DNA of 64,000 bases from an uncultured Planctomycetia bacterium (GCA_964354545.1 CAYHAE010000005.1:12414-76413), one strand, 5' to 3'. Counted from the first letter of the stretch, positions 1,762 to 43,048 are shown. Translations and numbers: made by a program. The notes: generated by a model not told the origin, from the sequence alone.

Positions 1762-2528
1762 GCGCGCATGCAGTATCAGAGGTATGGGTCGATAAATTGG
1801 AGAGCGAGCACGAGTACTTCCCGCCCTACGTGTGCAGGGAGTTCTTCACCCGGCTGGTCTCCACGCGATGGATATCATCTCTCATAAAGGACCCCTCCGC
1901 GGCAGCTTTTCTGGAGGCGGGATGCGGCATAGGACGGTTTGGCATCGCCATTGCGACCGCAGGGCGGAAGGTTACCCTCATGGACTGCTCCGAGAAGAGC
2001 CTCCAGGCAGCACGCCGCCTCAAGGAACTCGCTGAGGGCTATTTTGGCCCTCTTGATGTGGAGTGCCTCAAGGGCGAGCTTGAGCGCACGCGGTTCAAAG
2101 ACGGGATATTCGACGCGACTTTCAATGAAGGCGTGTTGGAGCACTGGAGCGATCGCTGCGAGCGGATAGGCATGCTGTCGGAGATGGCAAGGGTCACGAA
2201 GGCCGGCGGGCTCGTATCGGTGAGGGTCGTGAATACAAGAAATGCGTTGTATAATTTTCTTTTCCTGGCGTCGCTGAAGAAGACGATACCATTTTGCCAC
2301 AGGTACGACCTCAAGGGTCTCAGGCGCGAAATGGAAGACGCGGGCCTCGATGTCGTGTACTGTGACGGCGAAGTCATCAACGACCCCGGCGTGTGGACGA
2401 GGCGCGGGTGGCTCATCGGGCTATTGAAGGCGGCGGGCTTCGTGATAAACCGCCTGCCAAAGCGTTTCAGAGAGGTCTTGTGCCCGTCCATCTTCTGCAT
2501 CGGCGTAGTGAAGAGGTCGCAGCGATGA
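1758..2528 (+). CDS. Class I SAM-dependent methyltransferase
   Basis: Motif I LEAGCGIGRFG is followed by a typical acidic-residue strand (VTLMDCSE). There is a 4-bp ATGA overlap with the upstream gene. Confidence 0.75.
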   Translation: MSAHAVSEVWVDKLESEHEYFPPYVCREFFTRLVSTRWISSLIKDPSAAAFLEAGCGIGRFGIAIATAGRKVTLMDCSEKSLQAARRLKELAEGYFGPLDVECLKGELERTRFKDGIFDATFNEGVLEHWSDRCERIGMLSEMARVTKAGGLVSVRVVNTRNALYNFLFLASLKKTIPFCHRYDLKGLRREMEDAGLDVVYCDGEVINDPGVWTRRGWLIGLLKAAGFVINRLPKRFREVLCPSIFCIGVVKRSQR

Positions 2529-3940
2529 AGGTCCTACTGGTCAATCCGTCTCAGGAGAAGGTATACGGGGTAAAGATGTCTCCGATATATCCTCCGCTCG
2601 GCGTGCTCTATATAGGCGCGGCTCTCAAGAAACGCGGCCATGACGTGAGGCTGCTCGATGTCGACGTCGACGGGGTCACGCCGCAGACGTTCAGAGGGAC
2701 GCTTGAGTCGTTCAACCCAAGGGCCGTCGGCATCACGAGCGTCACGCCGACGGTCAAAGACGGGCTCAGGTGGGCATCCGAGACAAAAAAATTCGATCCG
2801 TCTATCCGCGTCATTTTCGGAGGGATACACGCGACCATAGCCCCTTTGGAACTGATCCGCGAGACGTGCGTGGATTTCGTGGCCTTTGGCGAAGGCGAGA
2901 AGACCGTCGTAGAGCTCGCGGAAAGGATCGAGGACGGCACGGGGTCCTATTCCGACATACGCGGCATCCTCTATAAAGTGGGAAGCGACGTTATCCGGAA
3001 CAGCCCCCGGGAGCTCATCGAGGACCTCGACGAAATAGAGTTCCCCGACACCGGCCTTCTCAGATCCCTCGCATGCTATGCCCCGCCCGATGCCGTCCGC
3101 ACCCCCGTCGCCACCATCATGACGTCCCGCGGATGCCCGGGGGATTGCACCTTCTGCTGCAGCAAATACATGTTCACGCGGCGCGTCAGGCTGCGGAGCG
3201 TTGACAATATTGTCCGTGAGATAGACCGCCTCGTCGATTCGTACCATGCGAAAGAGATCCACATCGCGGACGATACGTTCACGGTCAACAAGAAAAGGGT
3301 CGTCGATTTCTGCGAACGGGTCCGGGAAAGGGGATACGATCTGCAGTTTGAATTCATGAACGGCCTCAGGGCCGATTTTGTCGACGAAGATATCTTGAGG
3401 GCGCTCAGATCAATACGCGTGAGGAACCTCGGGTTCGGAGTAGAGTCGGGGAGCGATGAGGTGCTGAGGCTCGCGAAGAAGAACATCGATCTAAAGAAGG
3501 TGAAGAGCGCATTCTCCCTCGCCAAGAAGTTCGGCTTTGAGACCTGGGCGTTCTTCATCATAGGCCTCCCGGGAGAGACGGCCAGGTCCGTAGAGCAGTC
3601 GATACGGCTCGCCATCGAGCTTGATCCGGACTTCGCCAAATTCCTCATCCTGAAGCCTTATCCGGGAAGCGAGGTATTTGACTACCTCTCCGAGCGCAAC
3701 CTCATCGACAGCTACGATTACGACAACTACGGTGTCTACACACAACCGGTCCACCATCTGCCTGAGATGTCCAAGGAGGATATGGTGAGATGGCAGAAGA
3801 GGGCATTCGTACAATTCTATTTGCGCCCTCGAAAATTGTTAGGGCATGCGCTTCGGATAAGGTCATTTACCCAGCTGAAACTTGCTCTGAGAGGCCTGCA
3901 ATTTATAGCATTCAATATTTTTAGAGGGCGCGAGAGATGA
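2525..3940 (+). CDS. Cobalamin (B12)-binding radical SAM enzyme
   Basis: The ORF-track start at 2393 was trimmed to the ATG at 2525 (MKVLLVNPS), which overlaps the upstream stop. The B12-binding N-domain is VLYIGAALKKRGHDV. The radical SAM motif is SRGCPGDCTFCCS. Confidence 0.85.
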   Translation: MKVLLVNPSQEKVYGVKMSPIYPPLGVLYIGAALKKRGHDVRLLDVDVDGVTPQTFRGTLESFNPRAVGITSVTPTVKDGLRWASETKKFDPSIRVIFGGIHATIAPLELIRETCVDFVAFGEGEKTVVELAERIEDGTGSYSDIRGILYKVGSDVIRNSPRELIEDLDEIEFPDTGLLRSLACYAPPDAVRTPVATIMTSRGCPGDCTFCCSKYMFTRRVRLRSVDNIVREIDRLVDSYHAKEIHIADDTFTVNKKRVVDFCERVRERGYDLQFEFMNGLRADFVDEDILRALRSIRVRNLGFGVESGSDEVLRLAKKNIDLKKVKSAFSLAKKFGFETWAFFIIGLPGETARSVEQSIRLAIELDPDFAKFLILKPYPGSEVFDYLSERNLIDSYDYDNYGVYTQPVHHLPEMSKEDMVRWQKRAFVQFYLRPRKLLGHALRIRSFTQLKLALRGLQFIAFNIFRGRER

Positions 3941-4000
3941 CATTTTCATTTTTTCATCAGATAGCGTCAAAAACTGTGCTGACTTTAATCTCTATTTTAA

Positions 4001-4076
4001 CGCAGATATTCGCAAATCAAACGCGGATTTACGCAGATATCTGCGACGATCTGCGTTCGATCTGCGCAGATCTGCG
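4001..4076. promoter_or_regulatory. Array of overlapping palindromes built from a CGCAGAT half-site
   Basis: CGCAGATATCTGCG (4032-4045) and GATCTGCGCAGATCTGCG (4059-4076) are perfect palindromes. Extra half-sites lie at 4001-4013 and 4048-4055. The array sits 50-120 bp upstream of the -35 element of the regulator/transporter promoter. Confidence 0.4.
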
Positions 4077-4123
4077 TTAAGAATGTCAACAGGGTTTATT
4101 GCGGCATCTTTCATCATATATGC

Positions 4124-4152
4124 TTGACAACGCATTATGAATAATATATAAT
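4124..4152 (+). promoter_or_regulatory. Sigma70-like promoter (TTGACA, 17 bp spacer, TATAAT)
   Basis: TTGACA lies at 4124-4129. An exact 17-bp spacer follows, then TATAAT at 4147-4152. This is about 40 bp upstream of the ATG at 4193, in an AT-rich intergenic region. Confidence 0.55.
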
Positions 4153-4153
4153 C

Positions 4154-4171
4154 GTTTAGAATGTTCTAAAC
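4154..4171. promoter_or_regulatory. Perfect 18-bp palindrome (operator-like) immediately after the -10 element
   Basis: GTTTAGAATGTTCTAAAC reads as GTTTAGAA-TG-TTCTAAAC and overlaps the predicted transcription start. This position is typical of an autoregulatory repressor operator. The adjacent gene encodes a winged-helix repressor-like protein. Confidence 0.5.
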
Positions 4172-4192
4172 GTAATAAAAGAAGGGAAAGCC

Positions 4193-4687
4193 ATGAATAC
4201 CAAATTAGAGAACGCCCAGCACAGGTTTATGGAAGGAATAGGCACGCTGTGTGACAGCTTCGGCCTGAACAAATTCATCGCCCAACTCTACGCCCTCCTC
4301 TACTTAAGCGAGAGACCCCTCTCCCTCGATGACATGGCGAGCAAGCTCAAGGTGAGCAAGGGCAACATAAGCCTCAATATACGGGAGCTCGAGAAGTGGG
4401 GGGCCGTACGGAACATATGGGTGAAGGGCTCCAGAAAAGACTACTATGAAGCGAACCTGGATGTGAAGAAGGTGATGGCAGGCAAGCTGAAATCCGGCGT
4501 TCAGAGGAGGATGGCCGAAGTCTCTGACATGATCTCGGAGTTCAAGCGCATTATCCAGTCCGCATCGTCTGAACTCACGGACGAGGAGAAGGGTATCGTG
4601 AAGATATACGAGGAGAGGTTGAAGAAGATAGAAGAGCTCGAGGCGCTCGTATCGAATGCGATGAGCCTCGCGGATAAGCTATTATAA
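4193..4687 (+). CDS. GbsR/MarR-family winged-helix transcriptional regulator
   Basis: The segment FIAQLYALLYLSERPLSLDDMASKLKVSKGNISLNIRELEKWGAVR matches the GbsR/OpcR subfamily pattern (LS.EPLSLDE.A..L.VSK..VS.N.R.LE..G.V). The RBS is GAAGGGAAAG. A C-terminal coiled-coil-like tail is present. Confidence 0.6.
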   Translation: MNTKLENAQHRFMEGIGTLCDSFGLNKFIAQLYALLYLSERPLSLDDMASKLKVSKGNISLNIRELEKWGAVRNIWVKGSRKDYYEANLDVKKVMAGKLKSGVQRRMAEVSDMISEFKRIIQSASSELTDEEKGIVKIYEERLKKIEELEALVSNAMSLADKLL

Positions 4688-4696: not shown

Positions 4697-5737
4697 ATGA
4701 AATATAGTCCGATCATGCTTCGGATCATTACAGGGGCGCACTTCTTATTCTTACCCTTGGTGCCGGGTCCCGCCCATGCGGAAGAGAAGGTGATCAGGGT
4801 CGGATATTTCCCGAACATAACCCATTCGCAGGCGGTCATCGGCATCGCGAACGGCGCATTTCAGAAAGAATTGGGTAACGACGTTAAGATAGACGTCAAG
4901 ATATTCAACGCAGGCCCCTCGGCGATAGAAGCGATGTTCGCGGGAGAGCTCGACCTTACGTATATAGGGCCAAATCCCGCCATCAACGGATACGTTAAGT
5001 CCAAAGGGAGCGCCCTGAAGATCGTCGCAGGAGCCACGAGCGGGGGAGCAGGCCTCGTGGTCCGTGAGGATTCCGGAATTCAGAAGATAGGGGATTTCCA
5101 CAACAGGAAGATCGCATCGCCCCAGCTGGGCAATACCCAGGATGTCGCTCTCAGAGGATGGCTTAAAACGAATGGATTCACCCTGCGAGAAAGGGGCGGG
5201 GATGTTCAGGTCATCCCTATCGCCAATCCGGATCAGCTTACTCTTTTTCTCAAAAAGGAGATAGACGGAGCCTGGACGGTGGAGCCGTGGGTGAGCCGCT
5301 TGATCAAGGAAGGTCACGGGAGACTGTACCTGAATGAGCGGTCGATCTGGCCGAACGGAGAATTCGTGACCGCTCATATAATCGTGAGCCAAAAATTCAT
5401 GCGCGAGCACCGGGATCTCGTCAAAAAGTGGGTCGCATGCCACGTCGATCTCACGGGATGGATCAATCAGAATTTGCCCGAGGCGAAAGGTATCTTGAAT
5501 GAAGAGCTGAAGAGGATCACGGGGAAGGCTTTGCCCGCGGATGTCCTCGACGAGGCGTTCGCCCGCCTGAAGGTGACGTATGACCCTATCCAGAATTCGC
5601 TCTTCACATCCGCCCGGTGGGCCTTCGAGCAGGGATTCCTCGGTAAAGAATTTCCGGATCTTTCCGGGATCTACGATCTCACTGTGTTGAACGAAGTTTT
5701 GCGCGAGAAGGGCTTGGAGAATATCGAGAATAAATAG
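4697..5737 (+). CDS. ABC transporter periplasmic substrate-binding protein, NMT1/SsuA/TauA-like (sulfonate/nitrate/bicarbonate class)
   Basis: There is an N-terminal signal peptide (MKYSPIMLRIITGAHFLFLPLVPGPAHA). The NMT1-like fold signature is VGYFPNITHSQAVIGIANG. The gene is followed by the cognate ATPase and permease. Confidence 0.7.
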   Translation: MKYSPIMLRIITGAHFLFLPLVPGPAHAEEKVIRVGYFPNITHSQAVIGIANGAFQKELGNDVKIDVKIFNAGPSAIEAMFAGELDLTYIGPNPAINGYVKSKGSALKIVAGATSGGAGLVVREDSGIQKIGDFHNRKIASPQLGNTQDVALRGWLKTNGFTLRERGGDVQVIPIANPDQLTLFLKKEIDGAWTVEPWVSRLIKEGHGRLYLNERSIWPNGEFVTAHIIVSQKFMREHRDLVKKWVACHVDLTGWINQNLPEAKGILNEELKRITGKALPADVLDEAFARLKVTYDPIQNSLFTSARWAFEQGFLGKEFPDLSGIYDLTVLNEVLREKGLENIENK

Positions 5738-5739
5738 GC

Positions 5740-6531
5740 ATGGCAAAGCTGAAACTACACGATGTCTCAAAACGTTTTAGGACCCGGCATGGATTCCTGA
5801 CGGTATTGAAGGATATCGATCTGGAGGTTGAGGACGGAGAATTTCTTTGCATTGTCGGGCCATCGGGGTGCGGGAAGACAACGCTTCTGAATATTATTGC
5901 CGGGTTAGAAAATCCGTCAAAAGGCCAGGCGCTGTACAAGGGCACACCGATCTCCGGGCCCAGCCCGAACAGGTTGATCATCTTCCAGGAATTGGGGTTG
6001 TTTCCATGGTTGACGGCGCAGAAGAATGTGGAGTTTGGGCTAAAGATGAAGAGGATCCCGCAGCGCAAAAGACAAGAAATAGCCCTCGAGTATCTCGATA
6101 TGATGAATCTCATCAAGTTTAAGGATTCGTATATCCATGAGTTGTCCGGAGGCATGAAGCAACGGGTTGCCCTCGCGAGGGCATGGGCCATGGATCCGGA
6201 GATCCTGCTCATGGACGAGCCCTTTGCTTCGCTGGATGCTCAGACGAGAGATATGCTTCATGATGAACTCCAGAGAATTTGGGAGAGGACGAAAAAGACC
6301 GTTATTTTCGTCACGCACAATGTAAGAGAGGCAGTATGTCTTGGGGACAGGGTGATCGTCCTTTCTGCGCTCCCCGCGGAGATCAAGGCGTGCTTCCAGA
6401 TCGATTTGAAGCGTCCACGGCACATCGAAGACCTCGGCCTGATGGAGATCGTGAGGTCGGTTTTGACGGAGTTGCGAAGCGAGATCGAGAAAACCTTCAG
6501 AGAGGAATTAAGTGCGGCAGAAAATACTTAA
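5740..6531 (+). CDS. ABC transporter ATP-binding protein (SsuB/TauB/NrtD-like)
   Basis: Walker A is GPSGCGKTT. The ABC signature is LSGGMKQRVALARA. Walker B is ILLMDEPFASLD. Confidence 0.85.
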   Translation: MAKLKLHDVSKRFRTRHGFLTVLKDIDLEVEDGEFLCIVGPSGCGKTTLLNIIAGLENPSKGQALYKGTPISGPSPNRLIIFQELGLFPWLTAQKNVEFGLKMKRIPQRKRQEIALEYLDMMNLIKFKDSYIHELSGGMKQRVALARAWAMDPEILLMDEPFASLDAQTRDMLHDELQRIWERTKKTVIFVTHNVREAVCLGDRVIVLSALPAEIKACFQIDLKRPRHIEDLGLMEIVRSVLTELRSEIEKTFREELSAAENT

Positions 6532-7267
6532 GCAGATATCGTTCTATGTGGCGCTTATTTTGTTATGGGAGTTTTTGGTGCGGTTGAAACTGTGGCCGGA
6601 TTATCTTTTCCCTTCGCCCTTGGCCGTCCTCGGCACCCTGATAGAGGGTTTTCGAAACTCGACATTTTTAATTGCCATTGGAATCAGCCTCCGGCGTATC
6701 GCGTTAGGATACGGCATCTCGATAGTGTTCGGGGGGTGTCTCGGGCTTCTGATAAGCAAATTTAGGATTTTGGACGAGACTATCGGGGAACTCATATTAG
6801 GTTTGCAAACTCTGCCGAGCATCTGCTGGTTGCCGCTTGCCCTTCTCTGGTTCGGACTGAATGAGCGGGCGATACTTTTTGTGGTCATCATGGGGGCCCT
6901 GTTTTCCATTACGATCGCAACCGAGTCCGGGATCAAGAATGTCCCGCCTCTTTATCTCCGCGCGGGGAGGAGCATGGGGGCCAGAAGCTGGCGGCTCTTC
7001 TGGGAGGTGATAGTGCCCGCTGCGACACCGTCTTTTATCTCCGGTTTAAAACAAGGATGGTCTTTTGCATGGAGGTCGCTCATGGCAGGGGAACTGCTCT
7101 TCGTGAGCTTGGGGCTGGGCCACCTCCTGATGATGGGAAGAGAGCTCAATGATATGAGCCAGGTGATCGCAGTGATGTTCGTGATCGCTTTCATCAGCAT
7201 ACTCGTCGGCAAATTTGTGTTCGGAAAGATCGAGTCGGATATGAGGAGGAAGTGGGGGGTCGGCTAG
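6512..7267 (+). CDS. ABC transporter permease (SsuC/TauC-like, BPD_transp_1)
   Basis: The protein is polytopic and hydrophobic. An EAA-like loop (MGARSWRLFWEVIVPAATPSFISGL) is present. The start is GTG at 6512, overlapping the ATPase gene; an alternative GTG is at 6548. Confidence 0.75.
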   Translation: MRQKILKQISFYVALILLWEFLVRLKLWPDYLFPSPLAVLGTLIEGFRNSTFLIAIGISLRRIALGYGISIVFGGCLGLLISKFRILDETIGELILGLQTLPSICWLPLALLWFGLNERAILFVVIMGALFSITIATESGIKNVPPLYLRAGRSMGARSWRLFWEVIVPAATPSFISGLKQGWSFAWRSLMAGELLFVSLGLGHLLMMGRELNDMSQVIAVMFVIAFISILVGKFVFGKIESDMRRKWGVG

Positions 7268-7291
7268 GGCGCCTGACTGAAGTGCGGGGCT

Positions 7292-7470
7292 AATCCCCTC
7301 CGCAAAATCCCCGGCTTTTGGTTCGACGAGCTCACCATCCCTCGAACCATCCCGAGCCGTTCGACAGGCTCACGATGCCTCGAATGGTGCCGAGCAGAGT
7401 CGAGGCACGAAGTCGAGGGGCAAGCCGGGGATGGGAAGTTGCGGAATAGGATTTTGCTTCGGGGAGGGAG
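7292..7470. repeat. MITE/REP-like intergenic element, copy A (long variant) with terminal inverted repeats
   Basis: The 5' end is AATCCCCTCCGCAAAATCCCCGG. The 3' end is GGATTTTGCTTCGGGGAGGGAG, an imperfect reverse complement of the 5' end. The interior holds nested inverted repeats (GGTTCGA...TCGAACC, CCTCGA...TCGAGG). The same termini occur at 27258-27346 and 61629-61706. Confidence 0.5.
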
Positions 7471-7533
7471 TCTCGGCCCTGCCAGCGGAGCTGGCGAGGC
7501 CGAGGGGCTCCACAAAAGAGAAGGAGACGATCG

Positions 7534-8148
7534 GTGCAAAAAAATGTGGTGTGGCATGCGCATAAGGTAACGAGACCGGAGAGGGGCGCCATCAAGGGCC
7601 ACCGCCCGTGTGTCCTCTGGTTCACGGGGTTGCCGTCATCGGGTAAATCCACGATCGCGAATGAGCTTGAGTCCGTCCTCAATCAACGAGGGGTGCATAC
7701 CTATGTCCTCGACGGGGATAACGTACGGCATGGGCTGAATAGGAACCTCGGCTTCACGAAAGAGGACCGCAAGGAGAACATACGCAGGATCGGTGAAGTC
7801 GCGAAACTCTTCGTCGACGCAGGTGTCGTGACGATCGCGGCGTTCATCTCTCCCTTCGCGGAGGACCGTCGATGCGCGCGGGATCTTATGAAAGAGGGGG
7901 AGTTCATAGAGATATATGCGAAATGCCCCCTCGAGACGTGCATGGAACGCGACCCGAAGGGGCTCTATAAGAAGGCGATCGCAGGCGAGATAAAGGATTT
8001 TACCGGTATAAACCAACCCTATGAGGAACCGCTTAAGCCTGAGATCGTGCTCGATACGGGCAAGCTGTCGGTAGAGGAGGGGGTCAACACGATCGTCGAA
8101 TATCTTGTCCGCAATGAGACCATCGGCGAGAAAGGAAAGGAGTTATGA
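7534..8148 (+). CDS. cysC: Adenylyl-sulfate (APS) kinase
   Basis: The P-loop [20 protein letters not shown] sits in the canonical APS kinase context. The size is about 200 aa. The start is GTG at 7534, 7 nt after the AAGGAG RBS. Confidence 0.9.
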
Positions 8149-9317
8149 ACTGCCCTTACGGAAGAAAGGAGCTCGTCAATGCCGTCGCCGCGGCCGGCGA
8201 AAGGGAGAGGCTCCTTAAGAAGGCAAAGACGCTTCATACGATAACGCTCGCGGACAGATTCCTTTCCGATTGCGAGATGCTCGCGATCGGCGCCTTCACG
8301 CCGCTCGATGGCTTTATGGGCCGCGACGAAGTCGATTCCGTCGTAAAACATTCCCGTCTTCCGAACGGGCTCATGTGGGGGATACCGATCGTCTTATTGG
8401 TCCGAGCGGACGAGGCCTCTTCCGTCAAAGTGAACGACGATGTGGCGCTCTGTGACCAGGGCGGGAGGACGATCGCCGTCATGCGTGTCGCCGAAAAGTT
8501 CACATATCCGAAAGAATCCTTCTGTAAAGAGGTCTTCAAGACCGTTGATCCGAACCACCCGGGCGTCAAGACGATACTCGAGAGCCCCGATGTCTTCCTC
8601 GGCGGGCCCGTGACGCTTATCGAACGCCCCTTGAGGAATGAAGTGGCGCCCTCATACTATCTCGATCCGGGCCAGACGCGCGCGGAGTTCAAAAAACGCG
8701 GATGGTCAACGATCGTCGCGTTCCAGACACGCAACCCTATCCATCGCGCTCACGAATATCTCATCAAGTGCGCCCTCGAATCGGTTGACGGCGCGCTCAT
8801 CCATCCTCTCGTAGGTGAGACGAAACCTGACGATATCCCCGCCGGGGTGCGGATGACGTGTTACAAGGCATTGATCGAGAACTACTTTAACCGCGAGAGG
8901 GTCGTCCTCTCGGTCCTGCCGACCTTCATGCGCTACGCCGGCCCCCGGGAAGCGCTCAACCACGCGATCATGCGGAAGAACTACGGATGCACCCACTTCA
9001 TCATCGGCCGCGACCACGCGGGCGTCGGGAATTACTACGGCCCGTTCGAGGCGCAGGAGCTTCTCCTTTCGTGCGCGGATAAGATCGGTATCACGCCGGT
9101 AAAATTCGATAATGCGTATTTTTGTAAAAAATGCGGGAACATGGCGTCGTCAAAGACATGCGGCCATGACCCGTCACATCATCTCCAGCTAAGCGGCACG
9201 AAGGTGCGCTCGATGCTTAAAGAAGGGGTGCGGCCGCCGGAGGAGTTCTCAAGGGCGGATGTGGTGGATATCCTTATCGCGTGGATGGCGGGGCAGGAGA
9301 AGGAACTGGTCAAATGA
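8145..9317 (+). CDS. sat: Sulfate adenylyltransferase (homo-oligomeric ATP sulfurylase)
   Basis: The diagnostic ATP sulfurylase motifs [13 protein letters not shown] and GRDHAGVG are present. A PUA-like N-domain is present. An AAGGAG RBS precedes the start. Confidence 0.9.
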
Positions 9318-10156
9318 GGGAACGTGACGGCGCGATGCTGTTTCGGATCGTGATGATCGCCGCAGAGGCCGGGGACGCTATAGCGGATGTGTACAATTCT
9401 GACTTTACGAGCGAGGAGAAGGCCGACGGATCGCCCATAACGCGTGCGGACAAGAGGGCATCCGAGATCATTTCGTCGGGATTGTCGGCCTGGTGTCCGG
9501 ATGTCCCGGTCCTATCCGAAGAAGGGGCAGATATTCCCTACGCCGTAAGGAAAACGTGGCGCCGTTTCTGGATGGTCGACCCTCTCGACGGGACCAAGGA
9601 GTTCGTGAAGCGCAACGGCCAGTTTACCGTGAACATAGCCCTCATCGACTGCGGAAAGCCCGTCCTCGGCGTTATCTACGCCCCCTCTCTCGATCTCTTC
9701 TACTTTGCGCAGGAAGGCGCAGGCTCATATAGGATGAAGGGACGGAAGGCCCTGGCGGGCTTGAAGAGCGTCGATGACCTGCGGTCGCGTGCGGAGAAGA
9801 TGCCCTTGCCGCGCGCCGACAGGCCTTTCACCGTAGTCGCGAGCCGTTCGCATCTTTCGAAAGAGACGCAGGATTGCATAGATGAGATCCGCCGCACGCA
9901 TGCCGACCTCGCCTTGGTGAACGTGGGGAGTTCGCTCAAATTCTGCATGGTCGCCGAAGGCGTCGCCGAGTTCTATCCGCGTTTCGGCCCTACAATGGAA
10001 TGGGATATCGCGGCGGGGCAGGTCATCGCCCAGGAAGCAGGAGCGACGGTGGCGGGGGGCGATGGCATGCCGTTACGGTACAACAAGGAAGACCTGCATA
10101 ATCCATGGTTCATCGTTAAAGCCGAATATGAGAGGGCGTATGAAGTTAAAAAATAA
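9314..10156 (+). CDS. cysQ: 3'(2'),5'-bisphosphate nucleotidase (PAP phosphatase, inositol monophosphatase family)
   Basis: The IMPase-family metal-binding motif WMVDPLDGTKEFV is present, with SEE upstream. The ATGA overlap with sat and the position beside cysC/sat support a CysQ role. Confidence 0.75.
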   Translation: MRERDGAMLFRIVMIAAEAGDAIADVYNSDFTSEEKADGSPITRADKRASEIISSGLSAWCPDVPVLSEEGADIPYAVRKTWRRFWMVDPLDGTKEFVKRNGQFTVNIALIDCGKPVLGVIYAPSLDLFYFAQEGAGSYRMKGRKALAGLKSVDDLRSRAEKMPLPRADRPFTVVASRSHLSKETQDCIDEIRRTHADLALVNVGSSLKFCMVAEGVAEFYPRFGPTMEWDIAAGQVIAQEAGATVAGGDGMPLRYNKEDLHNPWFIVKAEYERAYEVKK

Positions 10157-11138
10157 GAAGGTTCTCGTGACGGGCGCCTGCGGATTCATAGGGAGTCATC
10201 TCGTTGAGCGCCTGCTCGACGAAGGGTGTGCGGTGCGGGCGTTCGTATTCTATAATTCTTTCAATTCATGGGGTTGGCTTGATACGTTTCCGAAAGATAA
10301 ACTAAAAGAGATCGATGTCTTCCCGGGGGATGTAAGGGATCCCCATGGCGTCGCAGCGGCTGCGCGTGGAGCTGATATCGTCTTCCACCTTGCCGCATTG
10401 ATCGGCATACCATATTCATACCACTCCCCCGATTCCTGTATTGAAACGAATATCAAAGGAACGCTCAATATCCTCACTGCATGCAGGGATCTTGACGTAG
10501 AAAGGGTCGTCATCACTTCGACGTCCGAAGTTTATGGGACCGCTCGGTATACACCGATAGACGAGCGGCACCCTCTGCAGGGGCAATCTCCTTATTCAGC
10601 GACGAAGATAGGAGCCGATGCCATCGCAGAGTCATTCTATCGCAGTTTCGGCATGCCTGTCACGGTCGCACGGCCGTTCAACACATACGGTCCGAGGCAA
10701 TCCGCACGAGCGGTCATACCGACCGTCATTACTCAGCTTCTCTCGGGTGCCTCATCGATAAAACTCGGTTCTCTCCATCCCACGAGAGACTTTGTCTTCG
10801 TGGAAGATACCGTTGAGGGATTTGTGAAGATTGCGAAAGCGGACGCCGCCGTCGGTGAAGTGGTGAACATTGCCTCGCAGTCCGAAATATCGATAGGCGC
10901 GCTGGCGAAAAAGATCATATCAAAATTGAATCCGGACGCTAAAGTGATTGCTGACCCGGGAAGGGTGAGGCCCGAAAAGAGCGAGGTCGAGCGCCTGCTC
11001 GGGAGCAATAAGAAGATACGAAAGATCACAGGTTGGCGGCCCAGATATTCTATTGATGAAGGCCTTGACGAGACGATCGCGTGGTTTAAGGCCAGAGAAA
11101 ATTCAAAGTCATATAAGAGCGATATATACAATGTATAA
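10140..11138 (+). CDS. NAD-dependent sugar nucleotide 4,6-dehydratase/epimerase (SDR family; LegB/PseB-like candidate)
   Basis: The N-terminal Rossmann motif is VLVTGACGFIGSHLVERLL. The catalytic YxxxK is SPYSATKIGAD. The ORF-track start at 10062 was trimmed to the ATG at 10140. Confidence 0.8.
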   Translation: MKLKNKKVLVTGACGFIGSHLVERLLDEGCAVRAFVFYNSFNSWGWLDTFPKDKLKEIDVFPGDVRDPHGVAAAARGADIVFHLAALIGIPYSYHSPDSCIETNIKGTLNILTACRDLDVERVVITSTSEVYGTARYTPIDERHPLQGQSPYSATKIGADAIAESFYRSFGMPVTVARPFNTYGPRQSARAVIPTVITQLLSGASSIKLGSLHPTRDFVFVEDTVEGFVKIAKADAAVGEVVNIASQSEISIGALAKKIISKLNPDAKVIADPGRVRPEKSEVERLLGSNKKIRKITGWRPRYSIDEGLDETIAWFKARENSKSYKSDIYNV

Positions 11139-12237
11139 AGAGATATACCTAGACGCCCCGAGCGTCGGCGACCTGGAAAAACGGTACCTCAATAAGGCGA
11201 TAGACATGGGATACGTCTCGACCATAGGCCCGTTCGTCCGGGAATTTGAAGAGAAGTTTGCCAGATACCTGAACATAAACAGCGCCGTTTCGACGCAGAG
11301 CGGAACGGCGGCGCTCCATATGGCTTTATATGAGCTCGGTATAGGGCCGGGCGACGAAGTTATCGTGCCGGCGCTTACCTTCGTGGCGACGGTCAATCCC
11401 GTCATGTACGTCGGCGCGAAGCCGGTTTTCGCGGATGTCGATCTACGGACCTGGAACATCGCGCCGGAAGAGATAGAGAAGACCTTCACCAAAAGGACCA
11501 GAGCGATAATCCCGGTCCATTTTTACGGTAATCCGTGCGCCATGGATGTGATCAAAAAGATCGCGCGCAGGCACGGCCTCTATGTCATAGAAGACGCCAC
11601 CGAGAGCATCGGGGCGACGTACAAAGGCAGGCTCACAGGCACATTCGGGGATCTCGGGTGTTTCAGCTTTAACGGGAACAAGGTCATCACCGCGGGCGGC
11701 GGAGGCATGGTGGTCGGTAATGACAGGAAAAGGATTTGCCATATAAAATTCCTGGTCAATCAGGCCAGGGTCGAATCGAAGGGGTATTTCCACCCCGAGA
11801 TCGGCTTCAATTACAGGATGACGAACATAGAAGCGGCTCTCGCTCTCGCACAGATGAAACGACTGGAAGCGTTCTTATCGAGAAAGCGCAGGTTCAGGAA
11901 GATATATGAGGACGCGATCCGAGGTCTCGGATCCATCGAATTTCAGGAAGCGTATGAGGGTGGGGCAAGCTCTTTTTGGTTTACGTGCATTACGACCGGT
12001 GCGAAGTCCCATGTCGCCCTCCTTCAGAAGAGAATGAAGGAGAAGGGGATGCCGTCAAGAAGGGTCTTTATGCCCGTGACGGAATTTCCGCCGTACAGGA
12101 TATATAAAGATGATGACTACAAAAATTCGTATCATATTTACGAACACGGCCTCTGCCTGCCGGGTTCTACCCTGAACTCCGACGATGATATATACAGGGT
12201 ATGCGATGTGCTGAGGAAGGCGCTGAAGAAGATATGA
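11131..12237 (+). CDS. DegT/DnrJ/EryC1/StrS-family PLP-dependent sugar aminotransferase
   Basis: The protein has the family architecture (GPFVREFEEKFA...HMALYELGIGPGDEVIVPALTFVATVNPV). The PLP-lysine region is FSFNGNKVITAGGGG. The start was trimmed to the ATG at 11131. Confidence 0.85.
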   Translation: MYKEIYLDAPSVGDLEKRYLNKAIDMGYVSTIGPFVREFEEKFARYLNINSAVSTQSGTAALHMALYELGIGPGDEVIVPALTFVATVNPVMYVGAKPVFADVDLRTWNIAPEEIEKTFTKRTRAIIPVHFYGNPCAMDVIKKIARRHGLYVIEDATESIGATYKGRLTGTFGDLGCFSFNGNKVITAGGGGMVVGNDRKRICHIKFLVNQARVESKGYFHPEIGFNYRMTNIEAALALAQMKRLEAFLSRKRRFRKIYEDAIRGLGSIEFQEAYEGGASSFWFTCITTGAKSHVALLQKRMKEKGMPSRRVFMPVTEFPPYRIYKDDDYKNSYHIYEHGLCLPGSTLNSDDDIYRVCDVLRKALKKI

Positions 12238-12878
12238 AAAAAAAGATTATTCTGGCGGGTGGCGGCGGCCACGCAAAGGTCGTCATAGATGCCATCAATA
12301 AAATGGGAACGTATACGATATGTGGTATCGTCGATATCCGTATGAAAAAAGGGGAACGCGTTTCGGGTGTTCCGGTGGTTGGGGATGACGATGCCTTCAA
12401 GACAATTTTTAAAAAGAAGGTACGTCACGCCTTTATTGGTATCGGCTCGATCGGTAATTGCGACGCGAGGAAGAAGGTATACGGTAATTTGAGGAGTATA
12501 GGTTTTCAGTTGCCCATCATTGCCCATCCGAGCGCGGTGGTCGCTCATGATGTCGAGATAGGTGAAGGGACGTTCATCGCCGCGGGCGCAGTGATAAACC
12601 CGGGCGCAAAAATAGGAAAGAATGCGATAATCAATACCTCGGCATCGATAGATCACGACTGCGTGATCGGGAACTTCGTCCATGTGGCCCCGGGCGCGGT
12701 ATTGAGCGGGGGTGTCACGGTCGGTGATGAAACTCATATCGGAACCGGTGCGAGCGTGATCCAGGGGACCAGCATAGGGAAAAAGTGTTTTATCTCAGCC
12801 GGCATGACCGTATGCGAAGATATGTCGGACGGCGCCAAGCTGTCTCGTCGTTTTAGGCAACCAGATGACAAAGAATAA
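12234..12878 (+). CDS. NeuD/PglD-family sugar N-acetyltransferase (left-handed beta-helix)
   Basis: The N-terminal Rossmann-like segment MKKKIILAGGGGHAKVVID precedes hexapeptide repeats (IGKNAIINTSASIDHDCVIGNFVHVAPGAVLSGGVTVGD). There is an ATGA overlap with the upstream gene. Confidence 0.75.
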   Translation: MKKKIILAGGGGHAKVVIDAINKMGTYTICGIVDIRMKKGERVSGVPVVGDDDAFKTIFKKKVRHAFIGIGSIGNCDARKKVYGNLRSIGFQLPIIAHPSAVVAHDVEIGEGTFIAAGAVINPGAKIGKNAIINTSASIDHDCVIGNFVHVAPGAVLSGGVTVGDETHIGTGASVIQGTSIGKKCFISAGMTVCEDMSDGAKLSRRFRQPDDKE

Positions 12879-13887
12879 AAGAATATTTATCATAGCCGAG
12901 GCGGGTGTCAACCACAACGGAAGCGTCGGCGTCGCCAAAAAGATGATCGATGTCGCGGCGAAGGCAGGGGCCGACGCGGTGAAATTCCAGGCCTTTAAGG
13001 CGGAGAAGCTCGTGACGAGGGCAGCGCCGAAAGCGCGATATCAGATAGAGAATACGGGCAAGGGCGAGTCGCAGCTTGAGATGCTGAAGCGGCTTGAGCT
13101 GTCTGAGGCAGATCACAGAGAGTTGATGCGGCATTGCAGGAAGCGCGGCATCGCCTTCATGTCGACGCCGTTCGATGCGGAGAGCGTCGACTTCCTGGAC
13201 TCACTCGGCATGGGCATCTTCAAGATACCGTCCGGCGAGCTCACCAATAAAGGCCTCGTCGAGCGTGTCGCCTCAAAACGCACACCGATCATCCTCTCTA
13301 CGGGGATGTCGTACCTCGATGAGGTGGCGAAGGCGATCGACTGGATCTACGGGGTATGGGGCAGGGCGCGTACGAGGATCGGGCTTACGCTCCTCCACTG
13401 CGTTGCGAACTACCCCGCGCGCATAGAGGACACGAACTTGAAGGCAATGGCGACGCTCAAAGCCGCGTTCGGCCTTCCCGCGGGGCTCTCTGACCACACG
13501 GTGGGGATAGAGATACCGATCGCCGCAGCAGCGCTGGGGGCGACAGTGATCGAGAAACACTTCACGCTCGACAGGGCCATGGAAGGCCCGGACCATAAGG
13601 CCTCGCTCGAACCGCATGAGCTAACGGCGATGGTCCGAGCGGTCAGGAACATAGAAGCCGCCCTCGGGTCCGGGGTCAAGCGGCCATCGGCCTCCGAGCG
13701 CAAGAACATATGTGCGGTACGGAAGAGTATCGTCGCGGCGATGGCGATCAGGAGGGGACAGCGTTTCTCCGAAAGGAACATTACGACAAAGAGGCCGGGG
13801 AATGGCCTGAGCCCGATGCGATGGGATTCGGTCATCGGAGAGACGGCGAGGCGGGACTTTGCGAAGGATGAATTGATCGAGATATGA
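12865..13887 (+). CDS. neuB: NeuB-family nonulosonic acid synthase (N-acetylneuraminate/legionaminate/pseudaminate synthase-like)
   Basis: The NeuB TIM-barrel signature is IFIIAEAGVNHNGSVGVAKKMIDVAAKAGADAVKFQ. A C-terminal SAF/antifreeze-like domain is present. Sugar substrate specificity cannot be read from sequence. Confidence 0.9.
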   Translation: MTKNKRIFIIAEAGVNHNGSVGVAKKMIDVAAKAGADAVKFQAFKAEKLVTRAAPKARYQIENTGKGESQLEMLKRLELSEADHRELMRHCRKRGIAFMSTPFDAESVDFLDSLGMGIFKIPSGELTNKGLVERVASKRTPIILSTGMSYLDEVAKAIDWIYGVWGRARTRIGLTLLHCVANYPARIEDTNLKAMATLKAAFGLPAGLSDHTVGIEIPIAAAALGATVIEKHFTLDRAMEGPDHKASLEPHELTAMVRAVRNIEAALGSGVKRPSASERKNICAVRKSIVAAMAIRRGQRFSERNITTKRPGNGLSPMRWDSVIGETARRDFAKDELIEI

Positions 13888-15053
13888 AGAGAAAGATATG
13901 CGTCGTGACAGGCACGCGGGCCGAGTACGGGCTCCTCTACTGGATAATCAAGAGCATTCATGAGGACCCGAAGCTCGAACTGCAACTGGTCGTTACGGGA
14001 ATGCATCTCGTGCCCGAATTCGGTCTGACGGTCAGGGAGATCGAACGGGACGGTTTCCCGATCGCAGAACGCCTTGACCTTAGGCTCGTATCGGATACGC
14101 CTGCGGGGATCGCGACGTCGATGGGCGTCGGCGTGATGGGGTTCGCCAGAGCGTACAATCGCGTGAAGCCGGATATCCTGCTCGTGCTGGGGGATAGGTT
14201 CGAGATCCTGTCCGCCGCCGCAGCCGCCATACCGTTCAGGTTGCCGATCGCGCACATTCACGGCGGAGAAACGAGCGAAGGGGTAATTGACGAGGCGATC
14301 AGGCACGCGATTACTAAAATGAGCCACATCCATTTCACTTCTACCGAACTGTACAGGAAGCGGGTTGTGCAGATGGGCGAGGCGCCCGAGCGTGTTTTCT
14401 GCGTAGGCGCGCCCGGTCTTGATAATATTCATAAGTGCAGGATCCTGAGCAGAAAGAGATTATTTGAGGTGTTACATATTCCTCGATACACACGGATCGG
14501 CATCGCTACGTACCATCCGGTTACCCTTGATAGGAATAGTGCCGGGAGACATATTGGTATCGTGTTGGAGGCGATCAAGAGCACCTCGGGCCTATATTGG
14601 ATATTTTCCCTGCCGAACGCCGATACCGATAGAAAAGTTATCGCAGAAAAAATCAAAGATTTTTTTGCGCGATATCCGCAAAAAGGCAAGGTGGTCGCTT
14701 CGCTCGGACGAATTGCTTACCCGTCTATGCTGAGATATGCCGAGGTAATGATCGGCAATTCCTCTAGCGGCTTGATCGAGGCCCCGTCCTTCGGTCTTCC
14801 TGTCGTAAATATAGGAGATAGGCAAGCAGGCCGTCTACGCGCCGAAAACGTTATCGATGTCTCATCTTACAGTAGAGACCTGATCGCGCGTGCGTTACGA
14901 AAAGCGCTTTCCGGGAGATTCCGAAGTTCGTTACATGGAATGAAAAATCCATACGAAGGAAAGGATACGGATACGAGCAAAAGGATCGTCCACGTGTTGA
15001 AGACGATCCGCCTGGGGGAATCGTTAATCAAGAAAAGATTTTACGATCTTTAG
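13884..15053 (+). CDS. neuC: UDP-N-acetylglucosamine 2-epimerase, hydrolysing type (NeuC/LegG family)
   Basis: The N-terminus KICVVTGTRAEYGLLYWIIK and the motifs HIHGGETSEGVIDEAIRHAITKMSHIHF are typical of hydrolysing 2-epimerases. Confidence 0.85.
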   Translation: MKRKICVVTGTRAEYGLLYWIIKSIHEDPKLELQLVVTGMHLVPEFGLTVREIERDGFPIAERLDLRLVSDTPAGIATSMGVGVMGFARAYNRVKPDILLVLGDRFEILSAAAAAIPFRLPIAHIHGGETSEGVIDEAIRHAITKMSHIHFTSTELYRKRVVQMGEAPERVFCVGAPGLDNIHKCRILSRKRLFEVLHIPRYTRIGIATYHPVTLDRNSAGRHIGIVLEAIKSTSGLYWIFSLPNADTDRKVIAEKIKDFFARYPQKGKVVASLGRIAYPSMLRYAEVMIGNSSSGLIEAPSFGLPVVNIGDRQAGRLRAENVIDVSSYSRDLIARALRKALSGRFRSSLHGMKNPYEGKDTDTSKRIVHVLKTIRLGESLIKKRFYDL

Positions 15054-15060
15054 GCACAAT

Positions 15061-15150
15061 CGCTGTCTATAGGACAGAACAGCGTTTCGATAAAATCAGG
15101 CTCTTTTTCAAAGACGAAAACGAGCAGCTGCTTTTTCAAAGGCGAAAAAG
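15061..15150. promoter_or_regulatory. Intergenic hairpin plus duplicated internally palindromic motif TTTTTCAAAGRCGAAAA
   Basis: A hairpin CGCTGTC-TATAG-GACAG..ACAGCG lies at 15061-15084, right after the neuC stop. Two copies of CTTTTTCAAAG(A/G)CGAAAA lie at 15103-15120 and 15131-15150. This is the 200-bp gap before the amidotransferase gene. Confidence 0.3.
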
Positions 15151-15251
15151 CTGATCAATTCAAGGAAGAAGATCGTTGCCGGCAGCACGCTTCGACAGGA
15201 GAGGAAGATCTCGAATGACACGCAGGTGTACATCAACAAAGGAAGGCTAAG

Positions 15252-16388: not shown

Positions 16389-16479
16389 AAGTTGTGTATC
16401 GCGGCAGTGCGCGGAGCCGCCAGGACCCGAGAACGAGTATGGTTTCGTATGTGTACTTTTCAGTTCCGGGCGACCCTGA

Positions 16480-20130: not shown

Positions 20131-20148
20131 CTGCCGGGGGTTTATCCG

Positions 20149-21252: not shown

Positions 21253-21262
21253 AGGGGAGGAT

Positions 21263-22219: not shown

Positions 22220-22239
22220 CAAAAGAAAGTCGAAAAAAG

Positions 22240-27220: not shown

Positions 27221-27257
27221 TACGTAAAATCAAGAAGGATATCGCCGGCCACGAGCT

Positions 27258-35927: not shown

Positions 35928-35945
35928 GGCCCAAGGGATACCGGT

Positions 35946-43047: not shown

Positions 43048-43048
43048 A

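Follow-up and report, generated by a model that had tools for sequence, protein, structure and literature searches.

Why would three genes of sulfate activation, cysC, sat, and cysQ, stand at the head of an island for nonulosonic-acid sugars, and would the PAPS that they make serve sulfur assimilation or the sulfation of a glycan? The question is raised by a 64-kb stretch of DNA that was analysed as a whole and is referred to herein as the window. The first-pass annotation had favoured a PAPS supply for glycan sulfation over an assimilatory cys operon, and this reading has withstood closer analysis, given that the window holds no reductase genes and does hold a PF13469 sulfotransferase, homologs of which elsewhere adjoin APS-kinase and ATP-sulfurylase genes in nonulosonic-acid clusters. 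A dedicated supply of PAPS for glycan sulfation is thus the probable role of the triad, which consists of the following genes:

7534 to 8148, plus strand: cysC, adenylyl-sulfate (APS) kinase (Pfam, NCBIfam, comparison with E. coli CysC, motifs)
8145 to 9317, plus strand: sat, ATP sulfurylase of predicted homo-oligomeric type, with PUA_2 and ATP-sulfurylase domains (Pfam, NCBIfam, motifs)
9314 to 10156, plus strand: cysQ, 3'(2'),5'-bisphosphate nucleotidase, i.e., PAP phosphatase (TIGR01331, motifs)

The identities and coordinates first assigned to these genes were found to be correct, as all three products score above curated equivalog or subfamily cut-offs with their catalytic motifs intact. 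CysC matches Pfam APS_kinase at 4e-70, exceeds the cut-offs of NF003013 (300.9 bits against 163) and TIGR00455 (268.7 against 138.7), shares 54% identity with E. coli CysC, and carries the P-loop, DGDN, and FISPF motifs, the last read in the translation. Sat combines both expected domains (2e-96, Pfam), scores 523.7 against a cut-off of 387 on NF003166, and retains the QxRNPxHxxH and GRD (GRDHAG) motifs; no GTPase subunit is encoded in the window, and the sequence points to the homo-oligomeric type rather than CysDN. Its closest relative in a search of GTDB representative genomes (68% identity) lies on L002 in a cysC-cysC-sat-cysQ string. CysQ reaches 288.5 bits on TIGR01331 (cut-off 228.8), shows the metal-binding motifs of the inositol-monophosphatase fold, DPLDGT and WDIAAG, in translation, and, when read from the ATG at 9314, comprises 280 aa identical to the recorded product of the source contig. 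A second IMPase-family gene at 45391-46176 was considered as another CysQ and rejected, scoring 74.3 bits against 228.8 on the same model. Both ATGA overlaps reported within the triad are present in the sequence (cysC/sat at 8145-8148 and sat/cysQ at 9314-9317); 4-nt start/stop overlaps occur at 14 of the 58 gene junctions of the window and hence are not peculiar to the triad.

Sugar-nucleotide genes do directly follow the triad, as first noted: the legB ATG at 10140 lies upstream of the cysQ stop, with an overlap of 17 nt, and genes for LegC, a PglD-like protein, NeuB, and NeuC come next. They belong to the following pathway:

10140 to 21252, plus strand: legionaminic-acid-type nonulosonic-acid pathway (Pfam, NCBIfam)

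Encoded here are LegB, LegC (DegT), a PglD-like acetyltransferase, NeuB, NeuC, and a WbuX amidotransferase, and further GFO, DegT, CMP-transferase, GNAT, and CBS-nucleotidyltransferase (PtmE-like) proteins. LegB scores 495.1 against 475 on TIGR04180 and the hydrolysing 2-epimerase (NeuC) 451.6 against 235.9 on TIGR03568; the LegB equivalog, NeuB, DegT, PglD_N, and CTP_transf_3 are all present. Judged by its genes, the legionaminic-acid pathway appears complete, the stereochemistry of the sugar being putative. Such an enzyme set, including the WbuX amidotransferase, is that of pathways to Leg5Am7Ac-type sugars.

The triad could, in principle, be an ordinary cys operon that lies beside sugar genes by chance, with the PF13469 protein unrelated to it. 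Strings of sat and cysC are common in assimilatory operons (among 80 Sat loci of other genomes, a CysH-like gene lies within 10 kb in 39 and cysC nearby in 33), and an importer such as the one upstream of the triad is typical of cys operons, e.g., that of L047. The assimilatory sat-cysC operons of Planococcus, Staphylococcus, and Oceanobacillus (L006, L024, and L037) likewise share the Sat and CysC families of the window at ~50-60% identity; these operons, however, include cysH plus cysJI or sir within a few kb, whereas the window has none in 64 kb and its triad, unlike theirs, is fused to sugar genes. The absence of any APS/PAPS reductase or sulfite reductase gene from the window, already remarked in the first-pass annotation, was verified in two ways: Pfam detected no CysH, CysI, CysJ, CysD, or CysN among the 59 main ORFs (no PAPS_reduct or NIR_SIR included), and six-frame tblastn of the 64 kb with the same five E. 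coli proteins yielded no E-value below 0.23. With no reductase in any frame, cysQ translationally coupled to legB, sulfotransferase homologs recurrently neighbouring APS-kinase or sat genes in nonulosonic-acid clusters, and a cassette inserted into an otherwise conserved island framework (the last two points are documented below), a purely assimilatory role is highly improbable. One argument for sulfation must nevertheless be dropped, namely that CysQ points to consumption of PAPS by sulfotransferases: the enzyme is not diagnostic of sulfation because PAPS reductase releases PAP too, and in the Planococcus locus L037 adjacent cysC and cysQ occur together with cysH and cysJI.

A dedicated supply for sulfation implies a consumer, and the candidate lies 15.6 kb downstream of cysQ, between a putative glycosyltransferase and a conserved set of genes:

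23860 to 25716, plus strand: GT-B-fold protein of 618 aa, putative glycosyltransferase (AlphaFold2, Foldseek, synteny)
25796 to 27220, plus strand: sulfotransferase PF13469, presumed PAPS consumer (Pfam, motifs, fold)
27474 to 37850, plus strand: module co-conserved with the sulfotransferase (Pfam, synteny)

The locus had been proposed for a check with the PF13469 and PF00685 families, and the PF13469 match at 25796-27220, the very region singled out there, leaves the sulfation reading in place. Its Pfam score is modest (33.7 bits against a cut-off of 27, E = 5.9e-8, residues 18-251), and further profile matches are to TPST1 (2e-6) and the CurM ST. The protein carries the motifs R19-x-G21-S22-K23, H148-I-H150, and [R/K]175-x-P177...S183, which provide a 5'-PSB-like RxGSK, a 3'-PB-like [R/K]x7S, and conserved histidines; R19, G21, S22, K23, P177, and S183 are invariant in nine homologs, position 175 is R or K, and the motifs align with the TPST1 segments VPRSGTT and VRDGRASVHS. 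An AlphaFold2 model (pLDDT 77.6) predicts a sulfotransferase fold. In Foldseek, the best matches have a probability of 1.0 and low TM-scores (0.37-0.55 relative to the target), in part because of an extra C-terminal helical region, and the best 50 PDB matches listed are all PAP(S)-binding proteins of sulfotransferase fold, nearly all of them characterised PAPS-dependent sulfotransferases. No second sulfotransferase was found in six-frame ORFs of the window with the family profile or the PF00685-type enzyme of L082.

This enzyme belongs to a small subfamily: of 1.84 billion cluster representatives, ~22 match at E < 1e-70. Eighteen independent contexts of homologs were compared, and in six of them the short DNA retrieved includes an APS-kinase-like or sat gene, often immediately adjacent to the sulfotransferase homolog (L086, L087/88, L099, L100, and L101). 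L082 reads APS kinase, ATP sulfurylase, second sulfotransferase, and then leg genes; the homologs beside APS-kinase/ATP-sulfurylase genes on these other metagenomic contigs lie inside nonulosonic-acid clusters. The flanking genes recur as well. The 618-aa GT-B protein (AlphaFold2 pLDDT 87.8; Foldseek matches to UDP-GlcNAc 2-epimerases, OGT/SPY, MurG, and polysialyltransferase) is matched by members of its family just upstream of the sulfotransferase homologs of L086 (29% identity by tblastn) and L091 (35%), and a 623-aa PF27878 protein occupies that slot in L087/L088. The downstream module encodes a GFO oxidoreductase, an Ldh_2 dehydrogenase, a B12-radical-SAM enzyme, a GDSL hydrolase, a CTP_transf_3 protein, a GT2-CTP_transf_3 fusion, an FkbM methyltransferase, and a 634-aa unknown protein, and its gene order recurs in L086, L088, and L089 at 46-73% identity. 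As a separate matter, the ~620-670-aa unknown proteins g25, g35, and g45 were considered as paralogs; BLASTP finds no significant similarity among them, which gives no ground for grouping them as one family.

These neighbourhoods also bear on whether the island needs PAPS, or some other 3'-phosphonucleotide, for something besides O- or N-sulfation, be it as a regulatory metabolite that ties sulfur status to glycan output or through a CysC-like kinase that acts on a non-APS nucleotide. APS-kinase homologs with other substrates exist (C. jejuni Cj1415; Campylobacter phosphoramidate synthesis), and unusual pyruvate-kinase-barrel/APS-kinase fusions do stand beside some sulfotransferase homologs. 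In Vibrio vulnificus, moreover, PAPS signals the expression of the brp exopolysaccharide (PMC6113621). The CysC of the window, however, is canonical (54% to E. coli CysC, 300 bits on an equivalog-level model), is coupled to a canonical Sat and CysQ, and shares its island with a sulfotransferase whose PAPS-binding motifs are intact, all of which renders a non-sulfation purpose barely credible.

Further evidence for the assignment of the triad to glycan sulfation comes from the region upstream, where control elements and an importer precede cysC:

3997 to 4080, plus strand: short repeats, direct and inverted (ACGCAGAT / ATCTGCG[T]), arrayed ahead of the promoter (repeat search)
4124 to 4152, plus strand: sigma-70-type promoter (12/12 consensus match: TTGACA, 17 nt, TATAAT)
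4153 to 4172, plus strand: palindromic operator candidate CGTTTAGAA-TG-TTCTAAACG (palindrome GTTTAGAATGTTCTAAAC), directly after the -10 hexamer
4193 to 4687, plus strand: winged-helix regulator, 164 aa, distantly of GbsR/MarR type (homologs, neighbourhoods)
4697 to 7267, plus strand: ABC importer, with binding protein 4697-5737, ATPase 5740-6531, and permease 6512-7267 (Pfam, TIGR01728, homologs)
7268 to 7533, plus strand: spacer or leader before cysC, 266 nt, GC-rich, strongly structured (folding, repeat search)

Where a GbsR-type repressor had been proposed, a winged-helix regulator is indeed encoded, but it is tied neither to the importer nor to sulfur, as its orthologs head nonulosonic-acid islands without importer or cys genes. 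Homologs carry the JGI name GbsR; matches to CudC/GbsR models are nonetheless weak (CudC 69.8 bits against a cut-off of 218), and a role as GbsR osmoprotectant regulator was discarded on both score and neighbourhood, since the orthologs lie in nonulosonic-acid islands and not by choline/glycine-betaine genes. With GbsR the protein has only the winged-helix family in common. It has 403 homologs, with 60-79% identity for the best, and such source names as are given (a minority) all read Candidatus Omnitrophota/Omnitrophica; in Omnitrophota, nonulosonic-acid islands have this regulator as their conserved head gene. In L082-L085, a 51%-identical homolog stands directly upstream of the sulfotransferase homolog. 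The same layout of -35 hexamer, 17-nt spacer, and -10 hexamer precedes the regulator orthologs in L105, L107, and L082, and the operator core GTTTrrAAyGTTyTAAAC takes the same position in all three. Exact matches to TTTAGAANNTTCTAAA, for which ~0.16 would be expected by chance in the window, occur in 4 of 108 retrieved loci (L082-L085), each with a regulator homolog. Promoter and operator are conserved in four loci, and the L082 copy heads an operon with sulfotransferase and PAPS genes. The repeats at 3997-4080 are possible binding sites of a second regulator.

The orthologous Omnitrophota islands L105 and L107 run from rSAM-MT-rSAM genes through the regulator to the nonulosonic-acid genes, with neither importer nor cysC-sat-cysQ in between. 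Since importer and cys genes are absent there, the six genes at 4697-10156 are an add-on to the island, an accessory cassette of sulfate activation inserted at its head. The binding protein of the importer belongs to the SsuA/NMT1_2 family, has a signal-peptide-like N-terminus, and passes TIGR01728 (214.3 against 163.5). This importer family is known for sulfonates, taurine, and nitrate, not sulfate; no SsuD/SsuE-like desulfonating monooxygenase was detected by Pfam among the 59 main ORFs of the window, and in L036, L047 (a sulfate-assimilation operon), and L048 the genes directly after sat are homologs of the ATPase and permease genes, so that the cross-genome link is with sat and not ssuD. 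The earlier suggestion that the importer could bring in the sulfur source is strengthened by this placement. Between importer and cysC, the 266-nt spacer has two direct repeats of 37 nt, at 7321-7357 and 7359-7395, as well as long-range inverted repeats, and it folds with an MFE of -125 kcal/mol (z = -3.4; 0 of 200 shuffles equally stable). No U-tract terminator and no promoter-like or terminator-like site was seen in it, and Rfam, applied to the entire window and to the leader at 7200-7600, returned no riboswitch or known RNA, the only match being to a sub-threshold microRNA model and taken as chance. The spacer could insulate cysC-sat-cysQ from the upstream promoter; this weighs against the sulfation reading, as do the distance of the sulfotransferase from cysQ, its modest Pfam and TM-scores, and the substrates known for the importer family.

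The same upstream region informs the question of dual use, wherein the cassette is the only sulfate-activation pathway of the organism and its PAPS goes both to the sulfotransferase and to a PAPS reductase elsewhere for cysteine synthesis. Assimilation may indeed draw on the cassette too, which may be the sole Sat/CysC set of the organism: duplicate pathways may be lacking in small Omnitrophota genomes, the Omnitrophica locus L036 has an importer of this kind alongside sat, cysC, and a CysH-like gene, cysQ can be part of assimilatory operons (L037), and all cassette proteins are singletons at 90% identity, hence offering no paralog information. Housekeeping sulfur assimilation, however, is not normally wired to a surface-glycan promoter, and the cassette sits within a glycan operon behind the island regulator, is absent from orthologous islands, and has no reductase gene for company in 64 kb; dual use is therefore unlikely, and supply for sulfation remains the preferred reading.

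A mechanism can be proposed on this basis. Transcription would start at the consensus promoter (4124-4152), probably controlled by the island's winged-helix regulator via the palindrome at 4153-4172, and the transcript would cross the regulator gene, the importer, the 266-nt spacer, and cysC-sat-cysQ and continue into legB. The importer would take up a source of sulfur, in the simplest case sulfate or a related oxyanion or ester; Sat would convert it to APS and CysC to PAPS; the PF13469 sulfotransferase would move the sulfo group onto a component of the island glycan; and CysQ would hydrolyse the by-product PAP, otherwise an inhibitor of the transferase. We infer the co-transcription, the importer substrate, the sulfation itself, and its acceptor, as well as the co-expression of the sulfotransferase with the triad, the last from same-strand packing. 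Given that PAPS genes and an importer head a sugar-coat island with a sulfotransferase, sulfate on a sialic-acid-like surface glycan is very likely; the sulfate could go to the nonulosonic-acid residue or to the N-acyl side chain of that residue, or to a different sugar of the glycan.

The design of such a PAPS supply is known elsewhere, though not in this setting. The closest likeness is the capsule cluster of Cobetia marina KMM 1449, with cysN/C, cysD, cysQ, and a sulfate permease, and with a sulfotransferase elsewhere in the cluster (PMC11766843). There, too, a surface-polysaccharide cluster (~70 genes) with a sulfotransferase incorporates genes for PAPS synthesis, a PAP phosphatase, and a transporter for the sulfur source, and both systems would follow the same logic of import, activation, transfer, and recycling of PAP. 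Cobetia nevertheless uses heterodimeric GTPase-coupled CysDN, a fused CysC, and a permease, as opposed to the homo-oligomeric Sat, separate CysC, and NitT/TauT-type ABC importer of the window; its glycan is a Rha/Man polymer with Kps export, whereas the neighbours in the window are legionaminic-acid genes and the host is probably an uncultured member of the Omnitrophota; and its product is chemically proven, whereas that of the window is predicted from genes. Rhizobial NodPQ, with NodH or LpsS, likewise serves sulfation of a secreted or surface product. Comparable are RaxPQ with RaxST in Xanthomonas and the Synechocystis xss (synechan) cluster, which encodes sulfotransferases (PMC4216712, PMC8205485). 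In all of these, sulfotransferases modify a secreted or surface product, sometimes with a dedicated or duplicated PAPS supply, and RaxST and the tyrosylprotein sulfotransferases fall in the same broad group as the best sequence and fold matches of the window's enzyme. The differences are that NodPQ and RaxPQ are of CysDN type, that the acceptors are Nod factor, lipopolysaccharide, peptide tyrosine, or exopolysaccharide, and that none is known to be tied to nonulosonic-acid biosynthesis. Conversely, the legionaminic-acid pathways of Campylobacter jejuni and Legionella pneumophila (LegB, C, H, I, G, F, PtmE, and acetamidino formation) have LegB, LegC-type, PglD-type, NeuB, hydrolysing NeuC, CMP-transferase, CBS-nucleotidyltransferase, and WbuX proteins in common with the window, but we know of no PAPS genes in those loci.

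Known bacterial Leg/Pse derivatives bear acetyl, acetamidino, methyl, glyceroyl, hydroxybutyryl, or glutamyl groups, and no sulfated Leg/Pse forms or Omnitrophota glycan sulfation were found in the open-access literature. Environmental studies of biofilm matrices have detected nonulosonic acids and sulfate esters, with sulfotransferases missed by the usual reference sequences (PMC10483923). The locus and its relatives provide a genetic signature that joins both chemistries in Omnitrophota and other uncultured anaerobes: PAPS genes occur together with a nonulosonic-acid pathway and a sulfotransferase of the PF13469 subfamily. The cell surfaces of Omnitrophota are thought to be important for a host-attached lifestyle.

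Beyond the triad, the locus yields a candidate ABC importer for a sulfur source that belongs to neither of the classical CysPTWA and SulP families, and a conserved promoter-operator pair for the regulator of nonulosonic-acid islands. A bolder proposal, possible if rather doubtful, is that nonulosonic-acid glycans have a small, uncharacterised sulfotransferase subfamily of their own, founded by the enzyme at 25796-27220, that this enzyme sulfates a legionaminic-/pseudaminic-acid-type sugar or the N-acyl side chain thereof, with the CMP-sugar as substrate or else following transfer by the neighbouring GT-B protein, and that its expression is under a phylum-wide island regulator with a conserved operator; if true, this would be the first sulfated bacterial "sialic-acid-like" sugar. 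Sulfated surface glycans of bacteria are rare and poorly understood, and in this locus a sulfated sialic-acid-like sugar from a non-animal source has a candidate that can be tested.

Family scores and intact catalytic motifs in all three translations confirm the gene calls of the first-pass annotation at 7534-10156, which together with an ABC importer (4697-7267) make up a six-gene cassette (4697-10156):

7534-8148, + strand: cysC, APS kinase (Pfam APS_kinase, 4e-70; NF003013, 300.9 bits against a cut-off of 163)
8145-9317, + strand: sat, ATP sulfurylase of the homo-oligomeric type (PUA_2 plus ATP-sulfurylase, 2e-96; NF003166, 523.7 against 387)
9314-10156, + strand: cysQ (TIGR01331, 288.5 against 228.8)
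start at 10140, 17 nt ahead of the cysQ stop, + strand: legB, the gene behind the cassette (TIGR04180, 495 against 475)

CysC is 54% identical to its E. coli counterpart, and CysQ translated from the ATG at 9314 is identical to the database product for the 94-kb NCBI source contig. The three genes are translationally coupled through the 4-nt ATGA start/stop overlaps already recognized in the annotation (8145-8148, cysC/sat; 9314-9317, sat/cysQ), though such overlaps occur at 14 of the 58 gene junctions across the window and are not peculiar to this trio. PAPS genes touching sugar genes are also seen in other genomes, namely L002 (565-3694; the closest Sat relative, 68%, within a cysC-cysC-sat-cysQ string), the Paenibacillaceae MAG locus L010 (9081-14468; cysQ-sat, then RmlD-like and epimerase genes), and the Guptibacillus locus L080 (10001-17935; sat, with cysC and then a cytidylyltransferase gene further downstream and cysQ ~3 kb beyond).

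The proposal that these genes furnish PAPS for sulfation rather than assimilation is supported. The reported absence of APS, PAPS and sulfite reductases holds: no such reductase domain occurs in any main ORF of the window, and six-frame tblastn of the window with E. coli CysH, CysI, CysJ, CysD, and CysN returned nothing below E = 0.23; as a yardstick, among 80 Sat loci retrieved from other genomes, 39 have a CysH-like gene within 10 kb. The argument from the missing reductase and the fusion to sugar genes is sound. Less probably, the cassette might have a dual use and also feed sulfur assimilation. In a Planococcus locus (L037), sat is followed by cysC-cysQ and then by cysH and cysJI. Because L037 pairs cysC-cysQ with these reductase genes, the further argument that CysQ itself marks sulfation is weak.

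The sugar genes noted right behind cysC-sat-cysQ begin with legB, which overlaps cysQ, and continue, in order, with a LegC-type aminotransferase, a PglD-type acetyltransferase, NeuB, a hydrolysing NeuC, a WbuX amidotransferase, GFO, DegT, a CMP-transferase, GNAT, and a CBS-nucleotidyltransferase. The set makes up a complete pathway of legionaminic-acid type, and its product probably bears an acetamidino group. Beyond these genes, a single very large glycan island fills the window, with several methyltransferases, five GT2 enzymes, a GT-C (PMT_2) protein, an ABC exporter, rhamnose-type genes, and radical-SAM enzymes, seven of B12 type (B12-binding domain detected in six) and two SPASM. All of the ~59 credible genes in the window lie on the + strand and only ten intergenic gaps exceed 60 nt, a packing that resembles a single long operon. 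The density of radical-SAM enzymes (262-3940, 29932-31635, 48018-49706, 54593-56011, and 21224-23298) is unusual for a glycan island and suggests that the sugars are extensively C-methylated or otherwise modified by radical chemistry, and that the host is anaerobic. Likewise, a second sugar-acid module (39806-46176; HpcH/HpaI aldolase, cytidylyltransferase, hexapeptide acyltransferase, GFO, SIS isomerase, methyltransferase, 2-hydroxyacid dehydrogenase, and IMPase-family phosphatase) suggests a further ulosonic-acid-type sugar; its phosphatase is not a CysQ, scoring 74 bits where the cut-off is 229.

A sulfotransferase is encoded within the island, as a Pfam check proposed in the annotation revealed:

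25796-27220, + strand: sulfotransferase, PF13469 (Sulfotransfer_3), above the gathering score

Alignment with eight homologs shows an invariant R19-x-G21-S22-K23 and conserved H148-I-H150 and [R/K]175-x-P177 motifs, the latter followed by S183; the R19-K23 and [R/K]175-S183 segments align with the parts of human TPST1 that bind the 5'-phosphosulfate and the 3'-phosphate, respectively. A family profile search of PDB sequences retrieved TPST1 (2e-6) and the CurM sulfotransferase domain, and the best 50 listed PDB fold matches of the AlphaFold2 model (mean pLDDT 77.6) are all PAP(S)-binding proteins of sulfotransferase fold, nearly all of them characterised PAPS-dependent sulfotransferases. No second sulfotransferase was detectable in six frames of the window. 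An exhaustive profile search of 1.84 billion cluster representatives placed 2310 in the family at E < 1e-3 and 245 at E < 1e-30, with ~22 very close relatives. The protein carries a low-confidence C-terminal extension of ~40 aa, the next ORF (27217-27477, 86 aa) has no homolog or family, and the GFO ORF at 27474-28739 is ~25-30 aa longer than its homologs; gene boundaries around 27217-28739 may be mis-set and the 86-aa ORF spurious. The protein upstream (23860-25716) is confidently predicted to adopt a GT-B fold (pLDDT 87.8), with matches that include a bacterial polysialyltransferase.

The strongest support for sulfation is the context of sulfotransferase homologs in other genomes, where recurrent linkage to PAPS genes is found, some of it through fusion proteins:

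L086 8488-9999, L087 8485-9996, L088 2524-4035: pyruvate-kinase barrel-APS kinase fusion (503 aa)
L082 14192-16372: pyruvate-kinase barrel-ATP sulfurylase fusion (726 aa)

The 503-aa fusion lies directly upstream of sulfotransferases 46-49% identical to that of the window (L086 and L087/L088), while the L082 operon comprises a regulator homolog, sulfotransferase, MFS transporter, APS kinase, the 726-aa fusion, a second (PF00685) sulfotransferase, and then leg genes. In L099, L100, and L101, cysC-like or sat genes adjoin the sulfotransferase. Overall, a PAPS gene falls within the retrieved DNA in 6 of 18 independent contexts, six of the contigs being shorter than 5 kb, and most of the longer contigs carry nonulosonic-acid genes along with the sulfotransferase. 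Downstream of it in L086 and L087/L088 lie GFO, Ldh_2, B12-radical-SAM, methyltransferase, CTP_transf_3, a GT2-CTP_transf_3 fusion, and a ~650-aa protein, and the gene order of window 27474-37850 matches L086, L088, and L089 (46-73% identity). This module (in the window GFO, Ldh_2, B12-radical-SAM, CTP_transf_3, GT2-CTP_transf_3, and a ~640-aa protein) may build a modified CMP-activated acid sugar or side chain. It is better conserved than the accompanying sulfotransferase, and for its Ldh_2 the models of sulfolactate and ureidoglycolate dehydrogenase give similar scores, both below cut-off.

The cassette is an accessory add-on to the island. For the regulator at 4193-4687, 403 homologs were found (the best 60-79% identical); source names, given for a minority, are all Candidatus Omnitrophota/Omnitrophica, so the window probably comes from this phylum. 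Two MAG contigs, L105 and L107, carry radical-SAM-methyltransferase-radical-SAM genes, the regulator, and nonulosonic-acid genes, the first three genes of L105 sharing 53-69% identity with genes 1-3 of the window. In neither contig does an importer or cys gene intervene between regulator and nonulosonic-acid genes, exactly where the cassette sits in the window. The idea that the importer could take up the sulfur source gains support because homologs of its ATPase and permease (36-55% identity) immediately follow sat in three loci: L036, an Omnitrophica MAG that also carries a CysH-like gene and cysC; L047, where the assimilation operon is complete (Sir, AprA-like protein, CysM-ThiS, NMT1_2 binding protein); and L048. 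Sulfonates, taurine, and nitrate are the substrates for which this importer family is better known, and the window encodes no desulfonating enzyme.

Candidate regulatory elements precede the regulator gene, and a long spacer precedes cysC:

3997-4080: repeat array, ACGCAGAT / ATCTGCG(T), at least six copies in both orientations, dense, just upstream of the -35
4124-4152: perfect consensus promoter, TTGACA-17-TATAAT, preceding the regulator gene
4153-4172: palindrome, CGTTTAGAA-TG-TTCTAAACG, directly after the promoter
7268-7533: GC-rich spacer, 266 nt, ahead of cysC
promoter-operator copies: window 4124-4172; L105 9934-9981; L107 ~9943-9990; L082 8250-8298

The copies share a -35 (TTGACA), a 17-nt spacer, a -10 hexamer, 2-3 nt, and a GTTTrrAAyGTTyTAAAC palindrome, ahead of regulator orthologs in L105 and L107 and of a methyltransferase-regulator-sulfotransferase operon in L082. 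This layout is read as a candidate autoregulated operator, and the array may hold candidate sites for a second regulator. In Omnitrophota-like contigs, the conserved promoter-operator fronts a family of winged-helix regulators whose genes stand at the head of nonulosonic-acid islands. The 266-nt gap showed no site resembling a promoter or terminator and is predicted to form an unusually structured, multi-branched fold (MFE -125 kcal/mol, z = -3.4) with two 37-nt direct repeats, one hairpin each, and a terminal hairpin lacking a U-tract. It matched no Rfam family and has no second copy in the window; a leader RNA, a processing site, and an insertion scar are candidates.

Taken together, a single transcript would start from 4124, the importer would admit sulfate or a related compound, and the PAPS formed would be consumed in sulfation by the 25796-27220 protein. 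A tentative acceptor is the nonulosonic acid itself or its side chain; otherwise another sugar of the island's glycan would be modified. In Cobetia marina, a dedicated PAPS supply, cysQ, and a transporter likewise lie within a polysaccharide cluster encoding a sulfotransferase (PMC11766843). NodPQ/NodH and RaxPQ/RaxST embody the same concept, and in cyanobacteria the xss exopolysaccharide cluster also encodes sulfotransferases. Searches of the open-access literature turned up neither sulfated bacterial nonulosonic acids nor this linkage of their genes to PAPS genes. New relative to these precedents are the Sat-type enzyme set, the NitT/TauT-type importer, and the direct fusion to a legionaminic-acid operon, as well as the probable Omnitrophota host and an uncharacterised sulfotransferase subfamily tied to nonulosonic-acid clusters.
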